Shown: one piece after another, positions 1 to 20,214 of the stretch
How the letters are laid out: every line of letters begins with the position of its first letter
Numbering within the stretch: position 1 is the stretch's first letter
NCBI GenBank assembly: GCA_035270985.1
Contig: DATESD010000171.1
Span: 1-24,000, forward strand
DNA: 24,000 nucleotides
Origin: Bacilli bacterium
GTDB lineage: Bacteria > Bacillota_I > Bacilli_A > ML615J-28 > CAG-698
Reading direction: 5' to 3'
Notes under the pieces: model-generated
What the model was told of the DNA's origin: nothing
Seen by the model: only the letters and a program-made list of their open reading frames with translations
Database searches by the model: none
Translations under genes and position numbers: made by a program

Positions 1-1
1 A

Positions 2-1288
2 CTATACCGAGCCCTAACAGAAAAAAGCAATCCATATTTACCGCTTAATTTACTAGAGGTCGGATTAATAAAAACTGGCCGAGATGATAAATATTACGAT
101 ATGTTTCGCTCAAGAATAATGTTTCCGATTGATGACTTAAACGGAAATATTGTTGGCTTTAGCGGTCGGACTTACCATAAAACAAGCAAAGATGAAGCAA
201 AATATGTTAATAGTAATGAAAATATAATTTTCAAAAAAAGCAATATTCTTTATAATTATTCTCGCGCCATTAACACGATCAAACAAAAAGATCATGTCTT
301 TATTTTTGAAGGGTTTTTAGATGTCATTGCTGCCTACCGAGCAAAAGTGGAAAATACTATTGCAACAATGGGAACTGCGCTAACTAATCAACAAATCATT
401 GCAATTAAAAAAACTACTATGAATATAACGCTTTGCTTTGATGGCGATAACCCCGGCATTGAAGCTACCAAGAGAGCAATCGATTTATTTAACCGCGCTA
501 ATTTCAACATTAAAGTAATGCTTTTGCCGGAAAATCTTGATCCTGATGAATATGCAAATAAATTTGGAACGGAAAGTTTAAATGACTTTTTGGAAAATAA
601 GGCTTTAAGCGCTCCGGAATATCTCTATGAATTAGAAAAACGTAACTTGAATATCAATGATCCTTATAGTATTGAATCTTTTAAGAAAAATGTATTCAAT
701 TTTTTGCGTTTGTTTAATACTAGTTCTCTAACTGAATTTTATATTAAAAAAACCGCGGCTGATTTAGAAATGGCGACCTCATCGTTAAAAGATGATTATA
801 AAAAAGGCCAACAAAAGCAAACTATTTCTGCACCGCGCAGTCGCGAGGCAGGAAGAAGGCCAGCCGCAACAAAGAAACGTTATATCGCCAATGAGAAATG
901 TGCTATTTATCATGCGTATTTTTCTAAAGATTCGTGCACTCTGATTTCAAGTGAGAAAACTAATTTTACTTATGCTGATCCAGATAATCGTAATATTTTA
1001 TTTAAATTATTTGACTTTTATAAAACTAACGATAAAGTTAACGATGATTTTGTTAATTTATTGACTGCAGAAGAAAAACAGATACTAACAAAAATCTTAC
1101 AAAAGATAAACAGTGATAATCTAATAAGCTTAGAAGAATGCTTACAAGTAAATATTGAGTTTTTCAATGAAAAAATTCAAGAAAAATTACGAGAATCTTT
1201 TAAGGACGATGAAATTGACGATAAAAAAGCAATGGAATTTATTAATTCTAAAAGAATTACCACTAAAATAGTTAAAAAAGAGGAGTGA
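2..1288 (+). CDS. dnaG: DNA primase DnaG, 5'-truncated by the window edge
   Basis: Frame 2 is open from nt 2 ([43 protein letters not shown]...), so the ATG at 101 is internal. Primase/TOPRIM-type motifs are present: [35 protein letters not shown] stop at 1286-1288. dnaG-rpoD synteny as in the Bacillus sigA operon. Confidence 0.9.
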
Positions 1289-1292
1289 CCTT

Positions 1293-2558
1293 GTGAACTA
1301 TGAAAATCCTGAATTAGAATTAATTGTTGAAGATGGAAAGAAAAAAGGATATGTCGCTTTAAAAAAAATACTCGCAATTGTTGATGAAGAAAGTGAAGCT
1401 TTTGATGAAGTAACTAAAAAGTTGGAAGCTCTCAACATTGATATAGTGCGTGATTCTGATTTAGAAGCTTATGAATCTAACGATATCGATATCGATTCAG
1501 ATAGGTTTGTTGAAGATTTTGATGGTTTCATTGGTGAATTAGAAGGTGATCCTGAATTTACCGAGTTTACTAATGAAATTGAAAACGATTTAAAGACAAA
1601 AGATATTGAAGATATCGTTTCTGCGGTTATTACTCATACTCAAACTGATGATCCAGTAAAAATGTATTTAAAAGAAATTGGCCAAGTGCCACTATTAACG
1701 ACTACACGTGAACTAGAATTATCGCGAATTGTGCAACAAGGCTTGATTGCAAAAGATATTATTGAAATAGTTGAACTTGGGCGTCGAGAAGTAACTAACG
1801 AAGAAAAAGAAAAATTAAATTTATGTATTGAAGATGGTGAAGATGCTCGAGCGATAATAATTGAATCAAACTTAAGATTAGTTGTTTCGATTGCAAAAAG
1901 ATATTTAGGCCGTGGGATGCAATTTCAAGATTTGATTCAAGAAGGCAATATGGGATTAATGAAGTCAGTAACAAAGTTCGATCCCACTAAAGGCTTTAAA
2001 TTTTCAACATATGCAACATGGTGGATTAGGCAAGCGATAACTCGATCAATCGCTGATCAAGCGAGAACGATTAGAATTCCGGTTCATATGGTAGAGACTA
2101 TTAATAAACTAGTAAGAACGCAGCGAAAACTAACGCAAGAATTACGTCGGGAACCTACTCCTGAAGAAATTGCTGCGGAGATGAAAATTACGGTTGAAAA
2201 GGTCCAACAAATTCAAAAAATTGCTCAAGAGCCGGTTTCACTAGAAACTCCAGTCGGAGAAGAAGACGATTCAACATTAGGCGATTTTGTTCATGATAGC
2301 GAATTACCCAATCCACTTGATTATACGATTAACGAAAAATATAAAGAAGAAATTGATGAAGTATTAAAAACTTTGACTCCTCGAGAAGAAAAAGTATTGC
2401 GTTTACGTTTCGGTTTAGCCGATGGTAAACCTCATACATTAGAGGAAGTAGGCAAAGAGTTTGGGGTAACCCGCGAAAGAATTAGACAAATTGAGGCTAA
2501 GGCTATTAGGAGACTTCGACATCCGACTAGGCAAAAGCGACTTAGCCAATTTAAATAA
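1293..2558 (+). CDS. rpoD: RNA polymerase primary (group 1) sigma-70 factor, copy 1
   Basis: GTG at 1293 lies 7 nt after AGGAG (1281-1285). The 421-aa product has an acidic N-terminal region and the conserved blocks [79 protein letters not shown] and [30 protein letters not shown]. Confidence 0.95.
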
Positions 2559-2590
2559 AATAACAGCTAAATTTGTTGTATTAAAAATAG

Positions 2591-3877
2591 TTGAAAAAGA
2601 GGAGTGATTGTATTAACTATGAAAATTCTGAATTAGATTTGATCGTTGAAGAAGGAAAGAAAAAAAGTTATGTCCCTTTAAAAAGCATTCTGGCGATTGT
2701 CGATGAAGAAAGTGAAGCTTTTGAAGAAGTAACTAAGAAATTAGAACATTTAAATATTGATATAGTTCAAGATTCTGACTTAGAGGCTTATGAATCTAAT
2801 GAGATCGATATTGATTCTGAAAATTTTGTTGAAGACTTTGATGGATTTATTGGTGAATTAGAAGAAGACCCGGAATTTGCTGAATTTACTAGTGATATTG
2901 AAAATGATTTAAAGGCGAAAGATATCGAAGATATTGTTTCTGTAGCTATTACTCACAGTCAAACTGATGACCCAATCAAGATGTATTTAAAAGAAATTGG
3001 TCAAGTACCGTTACTAACTACTATTCGCGAATTAGAATTATCGCGAATTGTTCAACAAGGCTTGATAGCCCAAGATATTATTGAAATAGTTGATTCTGGC
3101 CATCGTGAAGTAACTAGTGAAGAAAGAGAAAAGTTAGTATTATGTATTGCTGAGGGTGATGATGCCCGAGAAATCATAATTGAGTCTAACTTACGTTTAG
3201 TTGTTTCCATTGCGAAAAGGTATTTAGGCCGCGGTATGCAATTTGAAGATTTAATCCAAGAAGGTAATATGGGGTTAATGAAATCAGTGCCTAAGTTTGA
3301 TCCAACGCGAGGATTTAAATTCTCAACATATGCAACATGGTGGATTCGCCAAGCAATAACTAGATCGATTGCTGATCAATCAAGAACTATTAGAGTCCCT
3401 GTTCACATGGTGGAAACTATTAATAAGCTATTTAGGGCGCAACGAAAACTAACACAAGAATTACGACGGGAGCCAACTCCTGAAGAAATTGCTGCGGAGA
3501 TGAAAATCACAGTTGAAAAAGTGCAGTTAATTAGAAAGATTGCTCAAACTCCGGTTTCGCTAGAAACTCCAGTTGGAGAAGAAGATGATTCAACGTTAAG
3601 TGATTTCATTCCGGATAATGAATTACCTAACCCACTTGATTATACTATTAACGAAAAATACAAAGAGGAAATCGATGAAGTATTAAAAACATTGACTCCT
3701 CGAGAAGAAAGAGTCTTACGGTTGCGCTTTGGCCTAGTTGACGGGAAACCTCATACACTAGAAGAAGTAGGCAAAGAATTTAATGTTACTCGTGAAAGAA
3801 TTAGACAAATAGAAGCTAAAGCTATTAGAAGGCTTCGTCATCCGACTAGAAAAAAGAGACTAAGTCAATTCAAATAA
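2591..3877 (+). CDS. rpoD: RNA polymerase primary (group 1) sigma-70 factor, copy 2 (tandem paralog; start codon uncertain, TTG 2591 or ATT 2612)
   Basis: Colinear with copy 1 at a constant offset of 1319 nt with no indels. All sigma-70 blocks are intact. The position homologous to the copy-1 GTG start is ATT (2612), preceded by the conserved AGGAG (2600-2604) at the same 7-nt spacing. The longest ORF starts at TTG 2591, which has no Shine-Dalgarno sequence upstream. Confidence 0.9.
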
Positions 3878-3881
3878 AATT

Positions 3882-3911
3882 GCAGATAGTTTACTATCTG
3901 CTTTCTTTATT
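3882..3911 (+). terminator. Rho-independent terminator after rpoD copy 2
   Basis: Perfect 9-bp stem GCAGATAGT / ACTATCTGC (3882-3890 / 3893-3901) with loop TT, followed by TTTCTTTATT. Confidence 0.8.
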
Positions 3912-3922
3912 AGAGAGGAGAA

Positions 3923-4576
3923 ATGATGGCATCACTAAGATTAAAAACAATCGCTAACTATATTGAACCTTATAAAACAATTGCTGATGTAGGATGCGAT
4001 CATGGGCACTTAATACTAGAAGCATTTGAAAATCATTATATTGATTTTGCTCAAGCAATTGATAATAAGTCTTTACCATTAAAAAACGCCTTAAAAAACA
4101 TAACTAAAGCTGGTTTATCGAGTAAAGTTATTTTCACTTTAGGCGATGGCTTAGAGAATTTGTGGGAGGGCATCGAAGTTATTGTCATTTCTGGAATGGG
4201 TGGCTATAATATTATAAAGATATTAAGCAATAATAGTAATAATGAAGCTAAAAGATTTATCCTGCAAGCTAATCGTAATGTTTACAACTTGAGAAAATAT
4301 TTAATGGAAAATGGCTATCGGATTGTTGATGAAGATATTATTCTGGAAGACGAAAGGCACTACGAAATAGTTGTTTGTGAACGAACTGCACGGGTGGTAG
4401 ATTATAGTGAAAAAGAACTTAGATTTGGGCCGGTTTTGTTGAAAAAAAGAAGTCAAGTTTTAATTGATAAACTAAAACAAGAAAGAGATAAATTAGCTTT
4501 AATCGATATAAAAGTTGAATCAATCGATGAAAAAATAAGGAGGTTAGATGAAATTATATGCTCGCGAAAAAAATAA
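3923..4576 (+). CDS. trmK: tRNA (adenine22-N1)-methyltransferase TrmK/YqfN family
   Basis: N-terminal SAM-binding block IADVGCDHGHL and the ..VISGMGG.. motif. Position directly after sigA and before a NIF3 gene matches Bacillus synteny (sigA...yqfN-yqfO). GGAG at 3917-3920 favours the second ATG (3926) as the start. Confidence 0.8.
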   Translation: MMASLRLKTIANYIEPYKTIADVGCDHGHLILEAFENHYIDFAQAIDNKSLPLKNALKNITKAGLSSKVIFTLGDGLENLWEGIEVIVISGMGGYNIIKILSNNSNNEAKRFILQANRNVYNLRKYLMENGYRIVDEDIILEDERHYEIVVCERTARVVDYSEKELRFGPVLLKKRSQVLIDKLKQERDKLALIDIKVESIDEKIRRLDEIICSRKK

Positions 4577-5349
4577 TTGAATATCTGGAGAAAAGATTTC
4601 CTCGAGAAAATGCTGAAGATTTTGATATTCCTCGAATCGGATTAATTGTTGGTAGAGACGATTTTATCGTTAATAACATTTTATTGGCACTAGATTTATC
4701 AGTAGAAGTTGTTAATGAAGCGATAAAAAATAAGGCTAATTTTATCATTATTCACCATCCTTTCTTTTTTGAACCAATGCATAAAATATTGTTAAATACT
4801 GAAAAAGGTGATGTTGCCAAGGTGTTATTAGTGAACGATATTTCTGTATATGCGATGCACACAAACTTAGATGTCGGTGCTGGCGGTGTTAATGATGTTC
4901 TTGCTGAAAAACTTGAAATTATGAATATTCAAATCGCTAATGGTGAAGTAGGAAAACATAATTACTTGCGTTTCGGTAATATAAAAGAAATTACTTTAGA
5001 AGGACTAGCTAGATTTGTCAAAGAAACGTTTAATTTGACGGGTGTCAAAATACTAGGCGATTTCGCCCAAAAAATAAGCAAAATAGGTGTTATAGGCGGT
5101 AGTGGTGCTCATGATTTTGATATTGAATGTGCCTATCAGAACGGCTGTCAAGTTTTAATAACTGGCGAAGTAAAATTAAATAATGCTCAATACGCGAAAT
5201 ATTTAGGCTTAAACATTATTGAAGTGAACCATGGCGTCGAAAAATTTGTTTTTTATAAATTAAAAAAAGATCTAGAAATTGATCTAGATCTAAAAGATAA
5301 AGTTAAAGTATCGAAGTTTGAAACGGATCCTTTAAAATTCTTTGCATAA
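4558..5349 (+). CDS. yqfO: NIF3-family (YqfO/GTP cyclohydrolase 1 type 2 homolog) metal-binding protein
   Basis: NIF3 hallmarks IIIHHPFFF, AMHTNLDV and GGSG. The start overlaps the trmK 3' end by 19 nt. Synteny with trmK. Confidence 0.8.
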   Translation: MLAKKIIEYLEKRFPRENAEDFDIPRIGLIVGRDDFIVNNILLALDLSVEVVNEAIKNKANFIIIHHPFFFEPMHKILLNTEKGDVAKVLLVNDISVYAMHTNLDVGAGGVNDVLAEKLEIMNIQIANGEVGKHNYLRFGNIKEITLEGLARFVKETFNLTGVKILGDFAQKISKIGVIGGSGAHDFDIECAYQNGCQVLITGEVKLNNAQYAKYLGLNIIEVNHGVEKFVFYKLKKDLEIDLDLKDKVKVSKFETDPLKFFA

Positions 5350-5375
5350 AAAAAGTAGCTAAGGCTACTTTTTTA
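5350..5375. terminator. Bidirectional rho-independent terminator (serves yqfO on + and ferredoxin on -)
   Basis: AAAAAAGTAGC-TAAG-GCTACTTTTTT. The stem GTAGC/GCTAC is extended by A/T pairs, and there is an A-run on one side and a T-run on the other. Confidence 0.65.
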
Positions 5376-5383
5376 TGTTAGTT

Positions 5384-5551
5384 TTATTTTTCAATAATTG
5401 CTTCTACTGGGCACACTTCTTGGCATGAACCACAATCGATACAAGCTTCTGGATCGATAACATAAATATCGCCTTCCTTAATGCAATCAACTGGGCATTC
5501 AGATGCGCAAGTACCACAAGCGATACATGAATCTGTAATAAATCTTGGCAT
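5384..5551 (-). CDS. 2x[4Fe-4S] ferredoxin, 55 aa (not in the supplied ORF track)
   Basis: Hand translation of the minus strand gives MPRFITDSCIACGTCASECPVDCIKEGDIYVIDPEACIDCGSCQEVCPVEAIIEK*. It carries two CxxCxxCxxxCP cluster motifs. GGAGG lies 7 nt upstream of the ATG (5549-5551); the TAA stop is at 5384-5386. Confidence 0.9.
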   Translation of the reverse strand: MPRFITDSCIACGTCASECPVDCIKEGDIYVIDPEACIDCGSCQEVCPVEAIIEK

Positions 5552-5577
5552 AAAAAGTCCTCCTTTAATCCTCCTAT

Positions 5578-5606
5578 ATTATACTATAAATAGTAAAATA
5601 GGTAAA
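5578..5606 (-). promoter_or_regulatory. Putative sigma-70 promoter of the ferredoxin gene
   Basis: On the minus strand: TTTACC (5601-5606), 17-nt spacer, TATAAT (5578-5583). Confidence 0.4.
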
Positions 5607-5665
5607 GACATATTTGTAAAAATAGCAATGAAAACGAATACTGTCATTTATAAGTATTGTAATAC

Positions 5666-5694
5666 TTGCATTTTATCGATAATTATAGTAAAAT
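5666..5694 (+). promoter_or_regulatory. Putative sigma-70 promoter of yneF
   Basis: TTGCAT (5666-5671), 17-nt spacer, TAAAAT (5689-5694), about 30 nt upstream of the yneF ATG. AAGGAG RBS at 5709-5714. Confidence 0.5.
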
Positions 5695-5723
5695 AACTTA
5701 TATTAAAAAAGGAGTGATACAAT

Positions 5724-5954
5724 ATGTGGACGCTACAAATTTGGGCTTGGTGTTTAATTATTTTGGGCTTTCTTCTTGTTGGAGCTGTGATAGGCTTTTT
5801 CGTTTCAAGAAAAATAATGACAAAATATTTAGAAAAGAACCCTCCTGTTAATGAAAAAATGATCCGTGTTATGTTCCAACAAATGGGAAGAACACCATCA
5901 GAGAAGCAAGTACGTCAAGTTATGGCTTCGATGACTCAAGCTAAAAATGAATAG
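5724..5954 (+). CDS. yneF: UPF0154 (YneF) family small membrane protein
   Basis: 76 aa with an N-terminal TM helix (WAWCLIILGFLLVGAVIGFFVSRK) followed by YLEKNPPVNEKMIRVMFQQMGRTPSEKQV, typical of UPF0154. Good RBS. Lies in the yne-plsY-parEC neighbourhood as in Bacillus. Confidence 0.8.
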   Translation: MWTLQIWAWCLIILGFLLVGAVIGFFVSRKIMTKYLEKNPPVNEKMIRVMFQQMGRTPSEKQVRQVMASMTQAKNE

Positions 5955-5968
5955 TTAGAATTAAAAAT

Positions 5969-5999
5969 AAAACATGCTCCGAAAGGGCATGTTTTTTTA
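5969..5999. terminator. Bidirectional terminator between convergent yneF and plsY
   Basis: AAAACATGC(t)CC-GAAA-GGGCATGTTTT. The 9-bp outer stem plus a 2-bp inner stem is closed by a GAAA tetraloop, flanked by an A-run and a T-run. It overlaps the plsY stop codon. Confidence 0.7.
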
Positions 6000-6644
6000 T
6001 TGACTGTTTTTTCTTCCCCACTTTATTTTTGCCTCTTGATGGTGATATAATCTTTTAATGTTACTGAGATGGCGAAAGTAAATTACCGATAGAGATATTA
6101 ATGATACAATAGCGAAGTAGATATCGATATCTTTTGCTAATATATAGTCGTAACCGATAAAAGTCATTATCACAACGATTATAGTAACAAAAGAAGCGGA
6201 TATTAAAGATCCCAAGGAAACATAACTTGATAAGTAAGTTACAAGAAAGAAAATTATTAAGGCGATTAATAATAACCATGGGCAATATCCGAGAATAACT
6301 CCTCCACTCGTGGCAACTGCTTTTCCCCCTTTAAATTTTAGATAGATTGAGAAGGTATGCCCCAGGATGGCGAACAAACCGTATATCATCGGCGATAAAA
6401 AACAATATTCACTGGGGATGATATTAAATCTAAATAAGAAGACAATAATAAAACCTTTAAAGGTATCTAAAACATAAGTTATTATTGCGTATTTGTTTCC
6501 TAGAACTCTACCGGTATTTGTAGTGCCGATGTTTTTGCTCCCGTGTTCTCTAATATCAACGCCTTTAATTTTACCGATGACAAAGCCGAAGGGGATTGCC
6601 CCCAATAAATAAGCAACAACAAGTAAACCATATTTAATCATCAT
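5997..6644 (-). CDS. plsY: Glycerol-3-phosphate acyltransferase PlsY
   Basis: Polytopic membrane protein with YLLGAIPFGFVIGK..G.DIREHGSKNIGTTNTGR.LG and HTFSIYLKFKGGKAVATS. The position next to parE-parC matches Bacillus (yneS-parE-parC). Confidence 0.9.
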   Translation of the reverse strand: MMIKYGLLVVAYLLGAIPFGFVIGKIKGVDIREHGSKNIGTTNTGRVLGNKYAIITYVLDTFKGFIIVFLFRFNIIPSEYCFLSPMIYGLFAILGHTFSIYLKFKGGKAVATSGGVILGYCPWLLLIALIIFFLVTYLSSYVSLGSLISASFVTIIVVIMTFIGYDYILAKDIDIYFAIVSLISLSVIYFRHLSNIKRLYHHQEAKIKWGRKNSQ

Positions 6645-6667
6645 ATATTTTCTCCAATTTGTTATTT

Positions 6668-6696
6668 ATTATACCACAAAGTGATTAATAAAACAA
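6668..6696 (-). promoter_or_regulatory. Putative extended -10 promoter of plsY
   Basis: On the minus strand: TTGTTT (6691-6696), 17-nt spacer, TGgTATAAT (-10 at 6668-6673). GGAGA RBS before the ATG. Confidence 0.45.
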
Positions 6697-6819
6697 TATT
6701 GAAAAACAAGAAAACATTGTTGATTAACATGGTCATTGAAATACGAAAAAAACTTTTGAAGAGAGGTTAAACATACTCATAAAGCATTAATGAATACGAA
6801 AAGCAACTTAAAATATTGT

Positions 6820-6848
6820 TTTACTTTTCGTTTAATATATGCTATAAT
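6820..6848 (+). promoter_or_regulatory. Putative extended -10 promoter of the parE operon
   Basis: TTTACT (6820-6825), 17-nt spacer, TGcTATAAT (-10 at 6843-6848), about 25-35 nt upstream of the parE start codons. Confidence 0.5.
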
Positions 6849-6870
6849 ATAGATAGATTAATAAGAAGGA

Positions 6871-8841
6871 ATGATGAATATGGCAAAAATTAAAAGCGAT
6901 GATTACACTGGTGAAAAGATTCAGGTCTTAAAAGGACTAGAAGCTGTTAGGAAACGTCCGGGGATGTACATTGGTTCAACCGACTCACGGGGGCTTCATC
7001 GCCTAATATGGGAAATCATTGACAATGGCGTTGATGAAGTGTTGGGTGGTTTTGCTAACCATGTTAAGGTTATTATTCGCAAGGGTAATATTGTTGAAGT
7101 ACAGGACAACGGCCGCGGGATCCCGATTGATATGCATAAAGAGGGAGTCCCAACACCACAGGTTGTCTTTGCTACTTTGCATGCTGGTGGAAAATTTGAC
7201 TCTACAGGGGCATATAAAGTTTCTGGAGGCCTTCACGGAGTTGGAGCGAGCGTCGTTAATGCTTTGAGTGAATGGATTGAATTAACAATTAATCGTGATG
7301 GTAAGCAATATTTTCAAAGATTTGAAGATGGAGGCAAAGTTATTCGTAAGCCGAAGATTGTTGCCGATTCATCAAAGCGAAAAGGAACTACTGTTGTTTT
7401 TAAACCTGACTCGTCAATCTTCTCAACAACGTTAATAGATTATAAATTATGTGCTCAACGCTTAAAAGAAGCAGCTTTTCTAATAAAAGGCTTAAAAGCT
7501 GAATTATTTGATGAAAGAAATAATACTCATGAAATATTTAAATATGACGATGGGATTGTTGAATATGTCAATACACTAAATGAAGGAAAAGAAAAGATTC
7601 ATGAACCTGTTTACTTGGTTGGATCTTATGGTAAGATTCAAGTGGAGGCCGCACTGCAATATACGACTAAAACATATTCTGAAAATGTTTTATCGTTTGT
7701 TAATAATATTAAAACTCGCGATGGTGGAACTCATGAAACAGGGTTAAAGAGTGCCATTACAAAAACTTTTAATGATTATGCAAGGATGAAGGGCTTATTA
7801 AAAGATAAAGATCCAAACCTTGATGGTGTTGATATTCGTGAGGGACTAACGGTAGTCTTATCAATTCGCATTCCCGAAGATTTGTTGCAATTTGAAGGCC
7901 AAACTAAAAATAAACTTGGAACTGCTGATGCAAAGGTGGCAGTCGAACAAGTTGTTGGTGAGCAATTTAAATTTTATTTGTCGGAAAAAGGAGAAATCGC
8001 TAATATTCTAATCAATAATGCTCTTCGGGCCTTTAGAGCTCGTGAAGAAGCCCGTAAAGCTCGTGACTCGGTGCGGATGATTAAGCAAAAAATCGGCAAA
8101 CCGATAAATATGAATGGCAAACTGAGTCCAGTTATTGAAAAAAACCCAGAAAGAAATGAACTGTTTATCGTTGAGGGTGATTCAGCGGGAGGAAGTGCCA
8201 AACAAGGGCGTGATAGTCAATATCAAGCAATTCTTCCATTACGTGGTAAAGTAATAAATGCCGAAAAAACCAAAACTGATGAATTGTTAAAAAACGAAGA
8301 AATAATGGCAATGATTCATGCAATTGGGGCTGGATTTGGACGCGATTTTAATATTAGTAAATCGAACTATAAAAAAATAATTATCATGACCGATGCTGAT
8401 ACTGATGGTGCACATATTCAAGTTCTGCTATTGACTTTCTTTTTTCGGTATATGGCTGAATTAATTTTAAATGGATATGTTTACATTGCTTTGCCACCGC
8501 TTTATAAAATATCAGGTAAAAATATTATTGAGTATGCCTGGACCGATGAAGATTTAAAAACAAAAGCGGGAACTTATAAAAATATCAATATTCAAAGGTT
8601 TAAAGGCTTAGGGGAAATGAATAAGGATCAGCTATGGGATACAACGATGAATCCGGAAACAAGAACCTTAATTAGAGTTAATATTGAAGATTTTAGTGAT
8701 GCCGATGGCCGCATTAGTGTTTTAATGGGCGATGATGTTGAACCACGTCGCGAATGGATTGAAAAAAACGTTTCCTTTGAATACATTGATAACTTTACTT
8801 TAGAAAACGCGGAGGCAACAAACGATGGCCAAGAAATCTAG
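6871..8841 (+). CDS. parE: DNA topoisomerase IV subunit B (ParE); likely true start ATG 6880
   Basis: GHKL ATPase and TOPRIM motifs: [72 protein letters not shown]. Paired with a ParC-type A subunit. AAGGA at 6866-6870 is best spaced for the third ATG (6880). Confidence 0.88.
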
Positions 8842-11281
8842 TATAACTAAAAAAATTAATGCATTTGTTGATGAAAAGATTTTGAATGAAAATCTCGAAG
8901 ACATTGTTGGCGAAAGGTTTGCCCGCTATGCTAAATATATTATTCAAGATCGTGCTCTCCCCGATGTCCGTGATGGCTTAAAACCAGTCCAAAGAAGAAT
9001 TCTTTTTGCGATGTATAAACTTGGGCTTTTTAGTAATAAGCCTTACAAAAAATCGGCGCGAATTGTCGGTGATGTAATTGGTAAATACCATCCTCATGGA
9101 GATACTGCTGTTTATGAAGCGATGGTGAGATTATCACAAGACTTTAAAATGCGATTACCACTAGTTGATATGCATGGTAATAATGGTAGTATTGATGGTG
9201 ATTCACCAGCAGCTATGCGTTATACTGAAGCAAGATTATCAAAATATGCGGAATCATTACTTCAAGATATAAATAAAAAAACAGTAGGTTTTATTCCAAA
9301 TTTTGACGACGAGGAATACGAACCAACAGTTTTACCAGCAAAATTTCCTAATCTCCTTGTAAATGGGTCGACCGGCATATCAGCGGGATATGCTACTGAT
9401 ATTCCTCCTCACAATATTGATGAGATTATTAATGCCGTTATCTACCGGATGAATAACCCTGAATGTAGTTTAAAAGAGATTATGAATATTGTTAAAGGCC
9501 CTGATTTTCCGACTGGTGGGATTGTCCAAGGAATTGAAGGAATAAAAAGTGCTTATAAGAATGGCCGCGGCAAAATTATTGTTAAGTCGAAAACGGAAAT
9601 TATTGAAGAAAAGAATATGTTTAAATTAGTTATTACTGAGATTCCCTATGAAGTTAATAAATCAGTACTAGTTAAAAAAATGACTGATGTTGTTGAAGCT
9701 AAAAACGTCGATGGTGTTATTGATATTCGTGATGAGAGTGGTCGTGACGGACTACGAATTGTCGTTGATATTAAAAAAGACATTAACCCTGAATTCATCC
9801 GTAATTTCTTCTTTAAATCAACTGATTTACAAGTGAACTATAATTTCAATGTGATAGCTATCGCTAATAAACGACCAACGCAAATGAGTTTAATCGAAAT
9901 TATCGATGCTTATATCGCTCATCAAAGAGAAATTGTTACTAATAAAAGCAATTATGAACTGCATAATGCAAAAAAGAGATTGCATATAGTCGAAGGTTTG
10001 ATTTCAATGATTTCGATTTTAGATGCCGTAATTAAAACGATTCGTTTTTCGGCGAACAAGAAAGATGCTAAAGAAAACCTCGTTTCAACGTATGAATTTT
10101 CCGAAGAACAAGCGGAAGCAATTGTTATGTTGCAACTTTATAAGTTAACTAACACTGATATATATGCTTTGCAAAAAGAAAAAGAAGATTTAAATCATAG
10201 TGTTGAACAATTAAACGATATTTTATCTAATGAGTCTTCATTGCTGTCGGTTATAAAAAACGAATTACTAACGACCCTAACAGAACTATCTTCACCACGA
10301 AAAACTGTTATTGAACATAAAATTGATGAAGTTAAAGTTGAAGTCAAAGAACTAATAGCCAAGGAAGATGCGATTCTTTTAATAACTCGTGATTGTTATA
10401 TTAAAAGAATGACACCGAAAAACTACGCTATCGAAGAAGAAACGAAGCTTAAAGATAATGATATTATTATCGCAAAATACGATGTCACGACGCTTGATAC
10501 TTTGCTGTTATTCACTAACCAAGGTAATTATGTATATTTGCCAGTGCAAAACATTCCTGATGTTAAACATAAAGATTTGGGGCGCAATGTCAGTACCCTA
10601 GCTTCAATTGCCGCTGATGAAAAAGTAATCTTCACAGTTGCCATTGATGACTTTAATGCTGATCGCTATCTTTTGTTTACTACTAAAAATGGTTTGACGA
10701 AGCGAACACATATTCGTAATTTGAACGCTGAGCGATATTCTCGTGCTTTAAAAGCAACAAAGATTCGTGATAATGATGAATTAGTTAGTGTTGATATTTG
10801 CCACGGTGATGAAAATGAAGTTGTCATGGTAACGAAACTAGGATTTATAAATCGCTATAACGCTAATGAAATTAGTTTATTTGCTCCCGCCTCTTTTGGT
10901 GTCAAAGCTTTAGAGATGAAGGGTAGACCTGATGACGAGGTCGTAGCAGGCCATTACATAGATAGCAAAGATACAATTATGTTGTTGAATCAAAAAGGCG
11001 TAATTAAAAAGATGAAGCCAAGTGATATTACTAAAGGCAAGAAAAATCATGTAGGTCGTCAATACGTTGCAATCGCAAAAAAGAATCCGGTTTATGTTGT
11101 CGATTGTGAAATCATTCATAAAAACAATGCTGATTTTAGTAATGACAATATCTTTATCGAAGGTACTGAGGGATTAACAGGACTAAATTCAGCCGGCAAA
11201 ACAAGCCCTAAAATAGGGGACATAGGTAGTGTAACAAAAATAATAATGGCGCGCAACAATAGCGATTTCGCTAAGGATTAG
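8825..11281 (+). CDS. parC: DNA topoisomerase IV subunit A (ParC)
   Basis: [20 protein letters not shown] and the ParC-type block [24 protein letters not shown] (GyrA has ..GQGNFGS..). No GyrA-box (QRRGGKG) at the start of the C-terminal domain. GGAGG at 8812-8816. 17-nt overlap with parE. Confidence 0.88.
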
Positions 11282-11291
11282 AGGTGCTTTT

Positions 11292-12323
11292 ATGAGTTGT
11301 ATAAAAAATATTAATAGATTTTTAATCCCCAATGATGTGATTGTTGTTCTAGGTGAGATTTACAGGTATATTGGAAATTCCAAACGCTATAACGAAGTCG
11401 TGGGCGGTGATAAGGAAAGAGTAATCGAACAAACAGTTGAGCGTGATGCATATTTCCTGGGATCTTTGATAAAACTTGATATCAGCGATATGCGTAGCCG
11501 TCTTATTATTACTAAGGATTCTAGTCCGCGTAATAAAGAAGAAACAACCTTGTATAATCTTAAAGATATGTTGATGACTTTACAAAAAAGACCTAAACAA
11601 TTTGGAATTCAAAGTAATGATATTTTAAATATTATCAATTTTGTCTTTTCTCACGCTAATAATCCGATAAAATTTGATTACGCGACGACAGAAAAGAAGT
11701 CTATCTTGCAAAGCCAGAACATGAAAAGCAAGAGATTAATTATTGATGAAATTACGGAAGATATTAACACGCTATTACAAAATAATAGCTTTGAAAAGAT
11801 CACGCTTTACTTGCATTACTTTATCGATTTTTATAACATAAAACCCTTTACTGCACAAAATGAATTAGCAAGTTTGTTGTTGCTGTATTTATTGATAATT
11901 AAGACAGATGTTGAAGCGTTTAAATATGTTAGTTTTTTCCAATTGGTTAAAGAAGATTACCATAATTTCCAAACGGAACTACTTAATGCAAGTTTTAACT
12001 GGCAAGAGGGGTATTCGCAATCGCTTGGTTTTATTCGTTATATGGAAAAATTAATTTTAAAAGGATATACACGAACAGAAGAAATTATCAAAAATTATAA
12101 ATTTGATCAAAAGTTAAATAAAATTGATAATATTGAACGAACAATTAGCAATATGAAAGAAGTATTTGCTAAAGAAGAAATCAGAGTAATTCACCCCTAC
12201 GTCAGCGAGTCAACGATCAATAGGGCTTTAATCAATCTTCGCGATGGTGGTTATATTAAGCCAATTGGCAAAGGCCGGAGCGCAAAGTGGATGAAAGTCG
12301 CACGAGGTTATAATAATGACTAA
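11292..12323 (+). CDS. Fic-fold-like protein with degenerate active-site motif and a C-terminal winged-helix domain (putative; the coding call itself is solid)
   Basis: GAGGTG RBS 5 nt before the ATG, 10 nt after the parC stop. Residues 175-200 (HYFIDFYNIKPFTAQNELASLLLLYL, nt 11814-11891) align by eye to the Fic core h.F..IHPF.DGNGR..RLL, but with His->Lys and GNGR->QNEL. The C-terminal STINRALINLRDGGYIKPIGKGRSAKW resembles the wHTH tail of many Fic proteins. Confidence 0.45.
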   Translation: MSCIKNINRFLIPNDVIVVLGEIYRYIGNSKRYNEVVGGDKERVIEQTVERDAYFLGSLIKLDISDMRSRLIITKDSSPRNKEETTLYNLKDMLMTLQKRPKQFGIQSNDILNIINFVFSHANNPIKFDYATTEKKSILQSQNMKSKRLIIDEITEDINTLLQNNSFEKITLYLHYFIDFYNIKPFTAQNELASLLLLYLLIIKTDVEAFKYVSFFQLVKEDYHNFQTELLNASFNWQEGYSQSLGFIRYMEKLILKGYTRTEEIIKNYKFDQKLNKIDNIERTISNMKEVFAKEEIRVIHPYVSESTINRALINLRDGGYIKPIGKGRSAKWMKVARGYNND

Positions 12324-13942: not shown

Positions 13943-13971
13943 AATAGTAAGTAATGACGAAGAGGTGTTTT

Positions 13972-15561
13972 ATGTATAAATTGATACTTGTAGACGATGA
14001 ACAAGATGTACGCAATAGAATTATTGCCTCAATTCAGAAAATTGATAGTGGGTTTGAAGTTATTGCCAATTATGACAATAGTTTAGATGCTTTTGAGGGT
14101 ATAATTCAGCTGAATCCAGATTTGGTTGTTACAGACATAAGAATGCCATTTATGACGGGGATTGAACTTTTGAAGAAAATCAAGGAAAGCCTACCTTTGA
14201 TTAAATCAATTATTATCACAGGCTTTGATGAATTTGATTATGCGAGACAGGCGATTGATTTAGGAGTTTCTGGCTTCCTAACTAAGCCGATTACAATGAC
14301 TGATTTAGAAGAAGTTTTGCGGAAAGCAAAAGAAGATCTCGATGAAGAGTTCCAGCGAAATACTAACCTGGAGAACATGGAAAACTTTATTAAAGAATCG
14401 TTGCCCTTGATTAAAGAAAATAATTTGCAAAGATTGATATCCTTATCTAATCCAGAAAAAAAATTCTTAAAAAAATTAGAAGGTAACGGTATATTTTTAA
14501 ATTATAAATACCATTTAGTTACTGTTATGGATATGGACTTAGATTTAGAAAATACTAACATCGAAAAATATGAGATGAATTTTCTTGCTGTTAAAAAGTT
14601 TATTGATGAAGGCTTACAAAATTACTTTTACCATGAGACATTTACTAAAAATGATGAAATAGTTACGATTATTAAATCTAATGATGCTATAACAATGAAG
14701 CAAGTAGAACATTGTTTTGAATATGTCTTGATGAAAACGAAGAAGTTCCTCGAGTTTACAATCAGTGTCGGCATTAGTAATTCATCTACGCATAAAAACT
14801 TTAAAGAAATGTATCGTGAAGCTCAATCTGCTCTCGAATTGCGTTCAATAATGGGTGGGAATGAGATCTATTTTGTGAGCAATATTGATAGCAATTATCG
14901 AAAAGTCCGGATGATTGATGATGATGAATTAAAGGAATTGAGTTATGCAATTAAGTACCGCACAGGAAGTGAAACAAAAGCTTTATTAATGTCGCTTAAG
15001 GAAAAAATTGCTAAACCAGAATACATCATATATAACCCTTTTAATCTATCTAACATTTTAAACTCTATTGTAAAGTCATGTGATGACTTGGATATTTTCT
15101 ATGGAGAAAGTAAAATGTCTTTTTATGAAAGATTATTTGAAATGAAAACCTTAGATGAAACATTTAATTGGTTTGAAAGTTTAATCGGTAAAATTAAAAC
15201 GATTAACCAAAACACTATAGCTGACAGTATCCAAAGAAATTTAAATAAAATTACTAATTATATTGATTCTCATTACACTGATAATGATTTAAGTTTAGAA
15301 TTTTTATCAGATAAAGTAAATATAAGTATTAGTTATATAAGTGCTATTTTGAAAAAAGAGCAAAACACAACTTTTGTAAAATATGTAACATATTTGCGAA
15401 TGGAAAAAGCTAAAGAACTTTTACAAAATCCTAACATGAAAATAGTAGATGTTGCTGAGGCAGTAGGGTATAGTGAGCCTTATTATTTCAGCCATAGTTT
15501 TAAAAAATATCAGGGCGTGTCCCCGAAAGAGTATCGTACGAGTGAAAGTACGGAAAAATAA
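13972..15561 (+). CDS. Two-component response regulator, CheY receiver + AraC-type HTH (YesN family)
   Basis: Receiver motifs ILVDDE and VVTDIRMPFMTGIELL. C-terminal AraC HTH: ISYISAILKKEQNTTFVKYVTYLRMEKAKELL...GYSEPYYFSHSFKKYQGVSPKEYR. I prefer ATG 13972 (MYKLILVDDE, GAGGTG just upstream) over the track start at 13954, which would lie about 5 nt from the predicted transcription start. Confidence 0.85.
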   Translation: MYKLILVDDEQDVRNRIIASIQKIDSGFEVIANYDNSLDAFEGIIQLNPDLVVTDIRMPFMTGIELLKKIKESLPLIKSIIITGFDEFDYARQAIDLGVSGFLTKPITMTDLEEVLRKAKEDLDEEFQRNTNLENMENFIKESLPLIKENNLQRLISLSNPEKKFLKKLEGNGIFLNYKYHLVTVMDMDLDLENTNIEKYEMNFLAVKKFIDEGLQNYFYHETFTKNDEIVTIIKSNDAITMKQVEHCFEYVLMKTKKFLEFTISVGISNSSTHKNFKEMYREAQSALELRSIMGGNEIYFVSNIDSNYRKVRMIDDDELKELSYAIKYRTGSETKALLMSLKEKIAKPEYIIYNPFNLSNILNSIVKSCDDLDIFYGESKMSFYERLFEMKTLDETFNWFESLIGKIKTINQNTIADSIQRNLNKITNYIDSHYTDNDLSLEFLSDKVNISISYISAILKKEQNTTFVKYVTYLRMEKAKELLQNPNMKIVDVAEAVGYSEPYYFSHSFKKYQGVSPKEYRTSESTEK

Positions 15562-17278
15562 TTTTTTAAACAAAAAAAGATCGATAGAGTTTAATATTCT
15601 CGTTTCTTGTCTATCGATTATGGTGGGATTTTCTTTGCTGTTAAGCTTATTGTCACTAAATAGCTTTTCTGAATTTGTCCAAAATACTTCTGAAGCCCAA
15701 ACAAAAGAAATTAGCCGACAAATTGTTCATAATTATGATAATTACATTTCAACAATCATTGATGCCTATAACGGTATTCAAGTAAAAATTGACAACTTAG
15801 ATGTTAAGGCTAGTGCTGAAGTGACTAGAGGTTATCTTGAAGATTTCTTGTTATTTAAAACCGATATTACCGACATTTCTTTGTTTTCTCTTGATGGTGT
15901 ACTCTATGGATCAACAACTACAACTATTTATAATCCAGGCTTGGTAATCCAACAAGCTTGGTTTGAACGGGCTGTCAATGAGCCATCATTAGTCTTTTTC
16001 TCAAATCCTTATATTGTCGATGGTGATTTCCGTATTTTAGTCAGCAAAGTAGTTAAACATAATCGGGGAACTGAAAAAGCTTTGATGATGATGGAATTAG
16101 ACTCGAGTCCGATAATTAACCTTGCTGAAAGTGCGAATTTAGGCAAAGAAGGGCGAATATTACTGCTAGACAGCGATTATAACAATATTTATTCGTCGAT
16201 AAACGATAAAGAACTAAGTAAAGCTATTCGGACCGTCAAAGAAATTATTATTGGTTCTGGTAAGGCACACCTTAATAGCTATGATATGGATGTCAATGTT
16301 GACACACTAACAAATACTAAATGGAAAATTGCTGTTTTTATTAATATTGATAACACAAAAGCTGTTCAAGAAAATTATATTTTTATTATCATCATTATTG
16401 GTCTATTTATGGTAGTGGCTGCGGTTACGATTATTGGGTTTACTTCCCGAAGAATTGCCAATCCATTAAAGGTTTTAGAAAAATCGATGAAGAAAATTGA
16501 ACAAGCAGACTTTTTAATCATCGAACCCGTCGAAGAAGGTTCGCAAAAAGAAGTAGCAAGCCTTAGTAATAGCTTTAACTTGATGATGGCCCGAATCAAA
16601 GAGCTGATGGACCGAATTATTGTTGAACAAAATGCTCAACGTGAAAGCGAGTTAAAAGCGTTACAAAGTCAAATAAATCCTCATTTTCTATACAATACTT
16701 TGGATTCGATAGTTTGGTTAATTGAAAACGATAAAAACACTGATGCCTCGCAAATGGTTGTGGCGCTCGCAAAATTATTTAGAATAAGTATTTCGCGCGG
16801 GAGAAATATAATTACTATCAAGGATGAATTAGAACACGCTCGTAGTTACTTAATTATTCAAAGATTTCGCTATTCCGATTCTTTTAAATATGAATTTGAT
16901 GTCGATGAAGAAGTGCTAGAATACACTACAATGAAACTTATCTTACAGCCTTTAATAGAAAATGCTATCTATCATGGCTTAAAAAATATAATTGATGAAG
17001 GCTTTATTAAAATAGGCGCTCATCGCGAACAAGATAATGTTGTTTTTACGGTAACAGACAATGGCTATGGCCTAAAAAAAGAGAAGATCGAGCAATTATA
17101 CACTAATTTTAAAAATCCTCACCTAAATGATGGCGTTGGATTGAAAAATGTATATTTAAGATTAGTATTATATTATGGTAAGGCGGCAGATTTGCAAATT
17201 GAAAGCGAACTTGATGAAGGAACAACCATAAAAATAATAATACCAATAAAAAGGAGTGAGCAGAATGTTGAGAATTAA
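15542..17278 (+). CDS. Sensor histidine kinase, YesM/LytS-like (2 TM + extracytoplasmic domain + HAMP + His_kinase + HATPase)
   Basis: Motifs LKALQSQINPHFLYNTLDSI, LIENAIYHGL, VTDNGYGL and GVGLKNV. There are two TM segments. The start is uncertain: there is no ATG/GTG/TTG between the regulator stop and the first TM helix. In-frame GTG 15542 gives MKVRKNNFLNKKRSIEFNILV... and overlaps the regulator by 20 nt. Confidence 0.8.
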   Translation: MKVRKNNFLNKKRSIEFNILVSCLSIMVGFSLLLSLLSLNSFSEFVQNTSEAQTKEISRQIVHNYDNYISTIIDAYNGIQVKIDNLDVKASAEVTRGYLEDFLLFKTDITDISLFSLDGVLYGSTTTTIYNPGLVIQQAWFERAVNEPSLVFFSNPYIVDGDFRILVSKVVKHNRGTEKALMMMELDSSPIINLAESANLGKEGRILLLDSDYNNIYSSINDKELSKAIRTVKEIIIGSGKAHLNSYDMDVNVDTLTNTKWKIAVFINIDNTKAVQENYIFIIIIIGLFMVVAAVTIIGFTSRRIANPLKVLEKSMKKIEQADFLIIEPVEEGSQKEVASLSNSFNLMMARIKELMDRIIVEQNAQRESELKALQSQINPHFLYNTLDSIVWLIENDKNTDASQMVVALAKLFRISISRGRNIITIKDELEHARSYLIIQRFRYSDSFKYEFDVDEEVLEYTTMKLILQPLIENAIYHGLKNIIDEGFIKIGAHREQDNVVFTVTDNGYGLKKEKIEQLYTNFKNPHLNDGVGLKNVYLRLVLYYGKAADLQIESELDEGTTIKIIIPIKRSEQNVEN

Positions 17279-18326
17279 AAAAGCATTACTACTTATTGCA
17301 TTTTTATTAATTTCTCTAGTTACTGTTAGTTGCAAGAAAAACACGGTGCAAATAGGTGTTTTAGTTTATAGTGAGTCTGATGCTAAAATAAGTGAAATAA
17401 TAGAATATGTTAAAACAAATATAAATTCCGAATATGAATTGTTGATTAAATATGCTAATCAATCACAGTCAGTGCAAAACGATCAATTCTTAGAAATGCT
17501 AGACTTGAAAGTTGATTTAATTCTCGTTAATTTGGTTGATAGATTGGTCGCTAACACGTTTGTTGAGAAAAGCAACATAACTAATACTCCTTTAATTTTC
17601 TTCGATCGTGAGCCATTATACGAGGATTTATTGCGAGGAGATGCTGCTTATTATGTAGGTTCAGACTCGAAAGGCTTCGGAATATTGCAGGCGCGAATGT
17701 TGAAAACAGTGTCAGGATCTGCGTATGATCCAATTAGAGCCGTTGATAAAAACAATGATGGTATATTGCAAATTGTATTTATGAAGGGTGAGCAAGGCCA
17801 CCAATTAACTGAATATATTACGGATACATGTATTTCAGAAATCCTTGCTAAGCAATATAAAATAGACGTTTTGACGATGGAATTCACTGATTGGCGCCGA
17901 GAAACAGCTAAAGAAAAAATGGCTAAAATTTATAAGAAATATGGAAATAGTATTGAAGTTGTCATTGCTAACAGCGATGAATTAGCTTTAGGAGTAATTG
18001 ATTTTGTTATCGAGAAAAACTTGAAATTAGTTTCCTCAGGAAATAAAGAATTCATGCCGTTTGAAATTATCGGGGCGACCGCCAATGAAGAGAGCATCGC
18101 CGCAATAAAAAAAGGTTTTATATATGGTAGTGTTATTGACGATCATATTGCCAAAGCAAAAGTTATCATATCGCTAGTTGAATTTTTACTTTATAAAAAG
18201 CCGGGAGATGTATTTTCGATTACAGAATGCGAAGAGGGAATCGACAAGGACAATATTTGCGCGGAAAATAACCTTATGATTTACATATCGGGTGAAGAAA
18301 TTAGTAAAAAGACTTTGAACAAATAA
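17265..18326 (+). CDS. MglB-like (periplasmic-binding-protein type I) sugar-binding lipoprotein
   Basis: AAGGAG (17251-17256) lies 8 nt before ATG 17265. Signal peptide with lipobox ..LVTVSC. Blocks recalling galactose/glucose-binding protein: QNDQ...VDLILVNLVD, PLIFFDREP, AYYVGSDSKGFGILQ, NNDGILQIVFMKGEQGH, IEVVIANSDELALG. Confidence 0.78.
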   Translation: MLRIKKALLLIAFLLISLVTVSCKKNTVQIGVLVYSESDAKISEIIEYVKTNINSEYELLIKYANQSQSVQNDQFLEMLDLKVDLILVNLVDRLVANTFVEKSNITNTPLIFFDREPLYEDLLRGDAAYYVGSDSKGFGILQARMLKTVSGSAYDPIRAVDKNNDGILQIVFMKGEQGHQLTEYITDTCISEILAKQYKIDVLTMEFTDWRRETAKEKMAKIYKKYGNSIEVVIANSDELALGVIDFVIEKNLKLVSSGNKEFMPFEIIGATANEESIAAIKKGFIYGSVIDDHIAKAKVIISLVEFLLYKKPGDVFSITECEEGIDKDNICAENNLMIYISGEEISKKTLNK

Positions 18327-19431: not shown

Positions 19432-20214
19432 TTAAGGAAATAACACTTTTACTTGGACTGATTTAATCTCATTCGCGGCATTTAACACTTTAAAAGTAAT
19501 ATAATTTTTAGTTGAATCGCGATTTATTAAAGTTCTTTTTGTAACTGCTTGGCTATGAATATCTAAAACTTTTTCTTCAACAAGAACGTATTCAGTATTA
19601 TCTAATGTTGTAAATTCAGTCATTGTTGCTGTAACGATTGTTGAATGTATTAACTGATTTCTGCTATTAAATTCACGAATAACATTATCGTCAGGAGTAT
19701 CAACTTTATTGATTTTTATTATGTAAGACAATACATAATTATAAGTTTTTATAACGACTTCTTCTGATTTATTTAAAAAATAACTTCCTCCAGATATATT
19801 AGTTATTTGATTTTTTAGAGAAAGCTCATAGGTACCATCAGTATTTTTATATATGCCATAAATTAAGATTGGGGTTGTAACGTTTATGCTTTGATAGTAA
19901 TTACCATTGATAAAAGCACAAACACTATCCGGGCTAATAATATCACCATCTAAGTAACTATATTCATATTTAAAGTCAAATAAAGCATCGCCGAGAAAAC
20001 TAATAATAGTGTATTCATCATTTAATATGAATCCGTTAATAGGTATATCATCTAAATTAGATAAATTTTTTATGTTTTCTAGTTCTTCAGTACTTTCGAT
20101 AATAGTCAAACCGACCATTTTTTTTGTTCCCTCTGTAACTTCTCGTTGTAAGCAGCCAGCTAACAGGAACATAGATAAAATTAACATGATCATAATTAGG
20201 TGACGTTTAATCAT
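19432..20214 (-). CDS. Lipoprotein of unknown function
   Basis: Signal peptide MIKRHLIMIMLILSMFLLAGC with the classical lipobox LLAGC. GGAG RBS upstream. I recognise no family motifs in the mature part. Confidence 0.75.
   Translation of the reverse strand: MIKRHLIMIMLILSMFLLAGCLQREVTEGTKKMVGLTIIESTEELENIKNLSNLDDIPINGFILNDEYTIISFLGDALFDFKYEYSYLDGDIISPDSVCAFINGNYYQSINVTTPILIYGIYKNTDGTYELSLKNQITNISGGSYFLNKSEEVVIKTYNYVLSYIIKINKVDTPDDNVIREFNSRNQLIHSTIVTATMTEFTTLDNTEYVLVEEKVLDIHSQAVTKRTLINRDSTKNYITFKVLNAANEIKSVQVKVLFP

Follow-up and report, generated by a model that had tools for sequence, protein, structure and literature searches.

A young tandem duplication of rpoD with one-sided divergence of the downstream copy in a lineage of Bacilli

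Introduction

Sigma factor families grew by duplication of rpoD, the gene for the primary sigma factor of RNA polymerase, and nearly all of the known primary-like paralogues are ancient, the first steps of their divergence having been erased. Within the Bacillota, Clostridioides difficile has two SigA proteins of group-1 type, SigA1 (CD1455) and SigA2 (CD1498); SigA1 is encoded next to dnaG and employed in exponential growth, while SigA2 is a second primary-like copy (PMC7438776 Table 1; bioRxiv 10.1101/2021.06.06.447298). The sigA2 gene has its own SigH-dependent promoter and has been assigned to stationary phase, and both factors are classed as group 1 (PMC7438776; bioRxiv 10.1101/2021.06.06.447298). 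Described here is a pair of rpoD genes that stand directly head to tail, between dnaG and trmK, in a stretch of 24 kilobases (kb) with 32% G+C (positions 1 to 24,000 of contig DATESD010000171.1 in the Bacilli bacterium assembly GCA_035270985.1, hereafter the window). Most of the amino acid change since the duplication has fallen on the downstream gene (copy 2). On balance, copy 2 is probably a young, co-transcribed and specialised primary-like paralogue beside an ancestral housekeeping copy 1.

The pair differs from these described systems in arrangement and age. The two C. difficile genes lie about 40 genes apart and their products are 65% and 56% identical to Bacillus subtilis SigA, whereas the present copies are adjacent, apparently co-transcribed, 88% identical to each other and restricted to a very narrow clade. 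'Alternative primary' sigma factors are also known from actinobacteria and from Burkholderia, and RpoS is believed to have arisen by duplication of rpoD (PMC2194791). These group-2 sigma factors (cyanobacterial SigB-E, actinobacterial HrdA/C/D and SigB, Burkholderia SigI/SigJ and proteobacterial RpoS) resemble copy 2 in being paralogues from rpoD duplication which coexist with an essential primary sigma factor and keep regions 1.2-4 together with closely similar promoter-recognition determinants. However, they are ancient, usually dispersed and independently regulated, whereas copy 2 is young, in tandem and has a full-length acidic N-terminus. The pair is thus an unusually young, tandem case of an already described sigma paralogy and not a new kind of system. 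A literature search for a tandem rpoD pair or for sigma duplication in Acholeplasma found nothing relevant, and no report of such a pair in Acholeplasmataceae.

The tandem repeat and its products

The open reading frame (ORF) listing of the window contains two long + strand frames, at 1293-2558 (GTG start, 421 amino acids (aa)) and 2591-3877 (TTG start, 428 aa), and a repeat finder reports a direct repeat with a spacing of 1319 nucleotides (nt). A first-pass annotation of this DNA had described two full-length sigma-70 genes at that constant offset with no indels, and an ungapped offset scan in 30-nt bins agrees: homology is gap-free from about 1262/2581 to about 2565/3884, with 67-97% identity per bin, and identity beyond the repeat span is at background (23-47%). 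The 5' edge of the duplicated unit lies ~27 nt inside the end of dnaG, the Shine-Dalgarno site is included and the 3' edge falls in the rpoD terminator hairpin; the presence of dnaG tail, Shine-Dalgarno site and hairpin within the repeat is as predicted by in-situ tandem duplication. A constant-offset direct repeat that takes flanking sequence with it, and whose copies are each other's closest relatives, has the properties of a tandem segmental duplication. Its parts and immediate neighbours are as follows.

101 to 1288, + strand: 3' part of dnaG (DNA primase; Pfam Toprim and DNAG_N), its 5' end cut by the window start
1262 to 2580, + strand: repeat unit 1, comprising dnaG tail, Shine-Dalgarno site, rpoD copy 1 and a degenerate remnant of the terminator hairpin (offset scan, repeat finder, flank alignment)
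1280 to 1285, + strand: Shine-Dalgarno site GAGGAG of copy 1, 7 nt 5' of the GTG start (sequence inspection)
1293 to 2558, + strand: rpoD/sigA copy 1, 421 aa, GTG start (Pfam, NCBIfam)
2559 to 2590, + strand: inter-copy spacer with a decayed terminator hairpin and no T-run (terminator scan, fold energy, flank alignment)
2581 to 3899, + strand: repeat unit 2 (repeat finder, offset scan, flank alignment)
2599 to 2604, + strand: Shine-Dalgarno site GAGGAG of copy 2, 7 nt 5' of an ATT codon, the same in the sister lineage introduced below
2612 to 3877, + strand: rpoD/sigA copy 2, 421 codons from ATT 2612 or 428 aa from TTG 2591 (Pfam, NCBIfam)
3882 to 3911, + strand: terminator-like hairpin GCAGATAG-TTTA-CTATCTGC followed by a T-rich run (terminator scan, folding)
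3923 to 4576, + strand: trmK (tRNA m1A22 methyltransferase; Pfam TrmK, synteny in three single-copy relatives, L002, L092 and L093)

Between the copies, 51 of 420 aligned residues differ (87.9% protein identity), exactly the number counted by hand in the first-pass annotation, which had put identity at ~88%. At the DNA level there are 212 differences over 1260 nt (83.2% identity), distributed 34/26/152 over codon positions 1/2/3. The earlier statement that 33 of the 51 amino acid changes are N-terminal is likewise exact (residues 2-189), the clusters of change reported in the N-terminus and in regions 3.0/3.2 are found, and the peptide strings quoted at the time are all present.

Both products are of the primary type. 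The Pfam domains Sigma70_r1_2, r2, r3 and r4 occur in order in each (E 1e-9 to 1e-31), and both pass the RpoD C-terminal equivalog-domain model TIGR02393 (cut-off 354), copy 1 with 390.1 bits and copy 2 with 384.4. Both score under the cut-offs of the full-length equivalog models PRK05658 and PRK09210, as expected because of their divergent N-terminus. Region 1.1 (PF03979, cut-off 22.5), a precomputed match in many homologues of the family, reaches 21.0 bits in copy 1 and is without a match at E ≤ 0.001 in copy 2. The N-terminal 119 residues of the copies are collinear without gaps, full length being kept in copy 2, and their net charge is -29 in copy 2 versus -25 in copy 1. The promoter-recognition motifs, including VTRERIRQ, are identical, with all residues for the -10, extended -10 and -35 elements matching; these we take to be, in Escherichia coli numbering, Y430, W433, W434, Q437, T440, R441; H455, E458; and R584, E585, R588, Q589.

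Copy 1 directly follows dnaG, the synteny of the macromolecular-synthesis operon, and copy 2 follows copy 1. By its sequence, copy 1 is the predicted housekeeping, ancestral-type primary sigma factor and, judged by conservation, a candidate for the major growth sigma factor. Copy 2 shares with group 2 the coexistence, as a paralogue retaining regions 1.2-4 and similar recognition residues, with a primary sigma factor in the same genome. A reduced or absent region 1.1, which is frequent but not universal in group-2 sigma factors, is not a property of copy 2.

Divergence of the two copies

The pair recurs in independent sequences. A food-metagenome contig from an independent assembly (L001, ERZ940653) is 99.9% identical to window positions 1-10725 and has both copies. 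In a protein search, 14 contigs, drawn from at least 10 sequencing runs, carried an orthologue of copy 2 (P0001, 98% identical); in 10 of the 10 such contigs displayed (L082-L091) the tail of a copy-1-type gene ends 32 nt 5' of copy 2, three of them (L083, L086 and L089) cross the junction between the copies, and trmK lies 3' of copy 2 in all except L089, which ends just past copy 2. One of these contigs, L082, shows 90.8% DNA identity to the window over 11.5 kb and hence belongs to a separate, sister lineage that has this tandem pair as well, in the gene order dnaG–rpoD1–rpoD2–trmK. The window copies are termed c1 and c2 below, and those of the sister lineage c1' and c2'. An explanation of the Logan contig starts as breaks at k-mers common to both copies was rejected, as the starts do not fall on such identical runs and the sister lineage has no identical runs >20 nt.

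Three relatives served for comparison, a metagenome-assembled genome of Acholeplasmataceae (L002, JAAYBG010000029), the assembly GCA_964411675.1 (L092) and a Logan contig (L093). Among the matches listed, L002 is the nearest genome in the GTDB species set (91% protein identity), and its dnaG orthologue encodes 592 aa and lies immediately 5' of rpoD. The survey of copy number in relatives that had been named earlier as a check yields a single rpoD in each of the three, always in the order dnaG–rpoD–trmK, and copy 1 is 91-93% identical to these single genes. From this synteny, trmK is the predicted ancestral downstream neighbour of rpoD.

Divergence since the duplication is one-sided. With L002 as outgroup, 37 changes are unique to copy 2 and 5 to copy 1; with both lineages and three outgroups, 34 stem substitutions are assigned to copy 2 and 3 to copy 1, with 4 ambiguous (binomial P = 1e-7). 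Least-squares estimates for the stem of copy 2 give 0.366 synonymous substitutions per site (dS), 0.057 nonsynonymous substitutions per site (dN) and a ratio dN/dS (ω) of 0.155, against dS 0.268, dN 0.0016 and ω 0.006 for the stem of copy 1. Between the lineages, c2 and c2' differ by only 7 amino acid changes in 420 residues (dS 0.553, dN 0.007, ω 0.013), and ω between c1 and c1' is 0.020. Together with an overall ω of 0.074 between the window copies, these values uphold the claim of the first-pass annotation that neither gene is decaying and that both are under purifying selection. By domain, the ratio between the copies is highest in the linker at residues 151-189 (0.30), intermediate in region 1.1 and the acidic linker (0.11-0.15) and lowest in regions 1.2, 2 and 4 (about 0.03). 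It is therefore well supported that copy 2 went through one fast burst of change and then came under purifying selection as strong as that on copy 1, a sequence of events which argues that it is neither decaying nor a mere spare.

The substitutions in copy 2 include positions that hardly vary elsewhere in the family. Among 119 homologues from the protein search, 192 alignment columns are ≥97% invariant; copy 2 departs from the consensus at 11 of them and copy 1 at 2, both shared with copy 2, while ordinary family members average 0.69 departures, with at most 4. Eight of the 34 copy 2 stem substitutions fall in these near-invariant columns (G19S, Q212E, A257S, Q306L, Q308R, E313T, G330S and G391N), and further changes affect highly conserved columns (K233R, I262V, V274F, V333I, H334P, K367R and Q414K). 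Positions were placed on E. coli σ70 by adding 190 to the residue number, following PDB alignment coordinates, and this offset was verified on six anchors (W433/W434, H455, Q406/E407, P504, D516-F522 and R584). On this scale Q212E corresponds to L402, in the region 2.2 helix that binds the β' coiled-coil, where the substitutions L402F, E407K and N409D alter the interaction of σ with core (PMC3326312). A257S and I262V correspond to A447 and I452, where region 2.4 ends; region 3.0 contains V274F and T276A, region 3.1 contains Q306L and Q308R, and E313T corresponds to E503, beside P504. G330S, V333I, H334P and S336N occupy positions equivalent to G520 to 526, just past the σ finger of region 3.2, which governs open-complex stability and binding of the initiating nucleoside triphosphates (PMC6265461). 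For the N-terminus, one study reports that growth-dependent regulation can be rewired by a single change in region 1.1 (PMC7641759).

Expression signals

The rpoD start codon is ATG in the three single-copy relatives and GTG in copy 1, and the homologous position in copy 2 is ATT in both lineages. The earlier description of both copies as intact accordingly stands for the reading frames, which are full-length, but not for the initiation codon of copy 2, which is non-canonical. The sole canonical in-frame start available to copy 2 is TTG 2591, directly after a stop codon; in a survey of ORF starts a Shine-Dalgarno motif was found for 14 of 18 window ORFs and none before TTG 2591. As the choice lies between ATT with a Shine-Dalgarno site and TTG without one, weak initiation is likely, and copy 2 is probably weakly translated. 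The N-terminus of the annotated 428-aa product is, from its sequence, probably wrong, or at least uncertain. Gene callers begin copy 2 at TTG 2591, and the resulting extension, MKKRSDC, corresponds to the translated dnaG tail plus the Shine-Dalgarno remnant; in the sister lineage this extension carries one non-synonymous change, C→Y.

Transcription signals differ between the two 3' ends. The hairpin after copy 2 folds at -13.3 kcal/mol (z -3.6), whereas that after copy 1 reaches only -5.3 kcal/mol (z -1.6) and lacks a T-run, and a terminator scan found no terminator-like site in the 2559-2590 spacer. The hairpin and T-run that follow the single rpoD of L002, L092 and L093 match those after copy 2, and the hairpin at 3882-3911 is, by this comparison, the predicted ancestral rpoD terminator, retained only after copy 2. 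Decay of the inter-copy terminator leads to an expectation of read-through and co-transcription of copies 1 and 2. A consensus scan for a promoter of copy 2 gave only weak 9/12 matches (27 versus 25 ± 5 in shuffled sequence) and none in the 2559-2590 spacer, the scan being uninformative in this AT-rich DNA. The one-sided divergence, the changes at family-invariant positions, the non-canonical start and the degenerate terminator between the copies all go beyond the first-pass annotation.

Proposed explanation

In the explanation preferred here, a tandem duplication in the shared ancestor of two close lineages of Acholeplasmataceae copied a 1319-bp segment made up of ~27 nt from the end of dnaG, the ribosome-binding site, all of rpoD and the terminator hairpin; intact ORFs under translation table 11 are consistent with this family. 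Copy 1 retained the ancestral sequence and would act as the housekeeping sigma factor. Copy 2 passed through a brief period of accelerated protein evolution in which about 34 substitutions were fixed, several of them at family-invariant positions. They touch region 2.2 in its β'-clamp-binding helix, the end of 2.4, regions 3.0/3.1, both flanks of the 3.2 finger and the acidic N-terminus, and copy 2 has since been held by purifying selection equal to that on copy 1. The duplication, its timing, the asymmetry and the constraint are demonstrated by the sequence comparisons; what copy 2 does, how it is expressed and how it differs biochemically we infer from sequence. It may lead RNA polymerase to the promoters that copy 1 reads, as the identical residues reading the -10, extended -10 and -35 elements imply and as the first-pass annotation had expected. 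It may differ in competition for core, open-complex stability, the kinetics of initiation or escape, or sensitivity to regulators. Copy 2 is predicted to be co-transcribed with copy 1 and inefficiently translated from ATT or TTG, and inefficient translation would make it the minor sigma species, a status for which the ATT start and the expected co-transcription are the sole, indirect hints.

A more specific and tentative proposal, which we regard as possible but doubtful, is that copy 2 serves as an additional housekeeping sigma factor, with the promoters of copy 1 but with kinetics or regulation of its own, in which Q212E in the core-binding helix, the region 3 changes and the more acidic N-terminus shift the sensitivity of the holoenzyme to a cellular or phage-encoded regulator or to nutritional signals. 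Such a factor might, for example, be a back-up that evades an anti-sigma factor or phage take-over factor, or might shift the usage of ribosomal RNA versus biosynthetic promoters. If this were true, the birth of a group-2-type sigma factor would have been caught at an early stage, with the causal substitutions (about 34) still countable.

Several points weigh against reading copy 2 as a specialised paralogue. The stem ω of copy 2, at 0.155, is well under 1, and a possible cause of the burst is transient relaxation of constraint instead of positive selection; with ω <1 on this stem, positive selection on a subset of sites and transient relaxation are indistinguishable here. The copies do not differ in the tip of the σ finger, EEDDSTL (E. 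coli 513-519), and any effect of region 3.2 would thus stem from its flanks. Values of dS near or above 1 approach saturation and the branch lengths are rough, c1' is known for its last 356 codons only, and the analysed stretch is one 24-kb segment of the genome.

The alternative that survives best, although unlikely, is that the two sigma factors are functionally equivalent and that the second copy has been kept to raise or buffer supply. The identical DNA-recognition residues, the strong purifying selection on both copies and the apparent co-transcription with no terminator in between would all suit duplicates retained for dosage. Equivalent duplicates are, however, hard to reconcile with divergence as lopsided as 34 substitutions to 3, and with alteration in copy 2 of residues invariant in 119 homologues. 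Selection for more product would not be expected to remove the canonical start, as has happened to copy 2 in both lineages, but to do the reverse, and gene conversion, which often homogenises dosage duplicates, is absent.

As a specialised paralogue or otherwise, so young a pair has the advantage that three single-copy relatives reveal the ancestral state and that the distinguishing substitutions, about 34, can be listed. They form a small, testable set of changes for the re-tuning of a sigma factor without altered promoter specificity, the candidate sites being region 1.1, helix 2.2, regions 3.0/3.1 and both flanks of the 3.2 finger. Divergence of this kind is conceptually expected, yet the locus offers a clean natural case of early divergence between sigma paralogues and adds a Mollicutes-related lineage with small genomes to the organisms with two SigA-type factors. 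For annotation, a plain 'RpoD' label is unsuitable for both genes, and the start of copy 2 needs care.

Timing and origin of the duplication

Synonymous divergence orders the events. Between the copies dS is 0.96-1.36 (0.96 within the window), between orthologous copies of the two two-copy lineages 0.48-0.55, and to the single-copy relatives 1.35-2.0; with dS between the copies at about 1.0, the first-pass annotation was right to call the duplication old. The four-point condition fits (c1,c2)|(outgroups) for both dN and dS. In DNA neighbour-joining, the split {c1,c1',c2,c2'}|{outgroups} and the pairings c1+c1' and c2+c2' each receive 100% bootstrap support, and the same three splits reach 100% on third codon positions alone; on first and second positions c1+c1' receives 90% and the two other splits 100%. 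When eight more distant outgroups are added in protein neighbour-joining, the duplication clade has 74% and a position of copy 2 outside it 2%. It is well supported that the duplication took place after the split from the three single-copy relatives and before the split of the two-copy lineages. Gene conversion between the copies since the lineages split was considered and rejected: 100 sites support orthology versus 8 and 7 for the other patterns, and the longest identical run, 32 nt, agrees with the permutation mean of 31.8.

The same data bear on an import of copy 2, together with the dnaG tail, from an unsampled relative by homologous recombination beside the resident gene. A long copy 2 branch could in principle mean descent in another lineage, and support of just 74% for the duplication clade in the protein tree leaves some room for this, but we hold such an origin to be very improbable. 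The DNA trees place the copies as sisters relative to the three nearest lineages with 100% support, third positions alone included, dS between the copies is below dS to every outgroup, and the exact gap-free register extends to a dnaG tail and Shine-Dalgarno site that were duplicated too. Moreover, no copy-2-type protein was found outside the clade in a search of 5.8 billion protein clusters, where P0001 is the sole protein of this type and the other top matches have copy-1-type residues.

The idea of copy 2 as a pseudogene in the making, decaying or already silent, deserves still less credence. Replacement of ATG/GTG by ATT at the homologous start and the raised amino acid substitution rate after duplication are what such a fate might produce, but both lineages, which stand dS ≈ 0.55 apart, retain an intact ORF, there are no indels, the Shine-Dalgarno site is conserved and the between-lineage ω of 0.013 effectively refutes decay. 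An assembly artefact, in the form of a collapsed or chimeric repeat or of two joined strains, can be given next to no weight, as the first-pass annotation had already held. In its favour are the metagenomic source and the existence of strains at ~91% identity; against it, 17% of sites differ between the copies with no common identical run longer than 32 nt, L001 reproduces the pair, contigs from other runs (L083, L086 and L089) cross the junction and copy 2 is not the sister strain's allele, c2 and c2' forming their own clade.

The first-pass annotation had also called such a tandem pair unusual. This holds for the arrangement, as the three nearest relatives are single-copy and a survey of 80 other species-level loci, with about 6 kb of flank per side, found a second sigA-like gene nearby in just 1; it does not hold for the existence of primary-like sigma paralogues, which are well described elsewhere. 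The single case is L010, from Bacillales bacterium UBA3206, with a pair in the same chromosomal slot from dnaG to trmK. Its second copy is about 51% identical to the query and has WW→AW in the -10 melting motif and an altered region 2.4/3.0. The common slot suggests an independent sigA duplication in another lineage of Bacilli; that pair is much older and may show a later stage of the same type of event. The L010 locus (DEWQ01000002.1, 5983-8829) reads dnaG – sigA (396 aa) – 103-aa ORF – sigA-like (387 aa) – trmK, and in the second copy YATAWIRQAISRSFDTSSRTIRVPSHIIE replaces the SigA motif ending in PVHMVE.

Other features of the window

Downstream of copy 2 the window continues with trmK, a NIF3-family gene (4558-5349), plsY, which is encoded on the other strand, then parE and parC, and after these ordinary chromosomal genes; no tRNA and no match to an Rfam family was found in the 24 kb. 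Two ORFs, of 343 aa (11292-12323) and 260 aa (19432-20214, - strand), have no Pfam family at E ≤ 1e-5; the sister lineage has the former in the same position, flanked by parC and a PHP-domain gene (L082 8970-10001). A sensory module of three genes occupies 13954-18326, encoding a response regulator of 535 aa with an AraC-type helix-turn-helix, a histidine kinase of 601 aa (His_kinase/HATPase_c type) with a Cache domain, and a protein of 356 aa with a periplasmic-binding-protein domain. The kinase ORF as listed (GTG 15473) overlaps the regulator by 89 nt, and its true start is therefore probably further downstream. At 22660-23568 (- strand) lies a tyrosine recombinase of 302 aa with Phage_integrase and SAM-like N-terminal domains in an XerC/XerD-like architecture, adjoining genes for a metalloenzyme-superfamily protein and an S33-type hydrolase. 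A 55-aa 4Fe-4S ferredoxin gene (5384-5551, - strand), flanked by the NIF3-family gene and a UPF0154 gene, falls below the 60-aa threshold of the ORF listing and is called on related contigs (L001 5386-5553).

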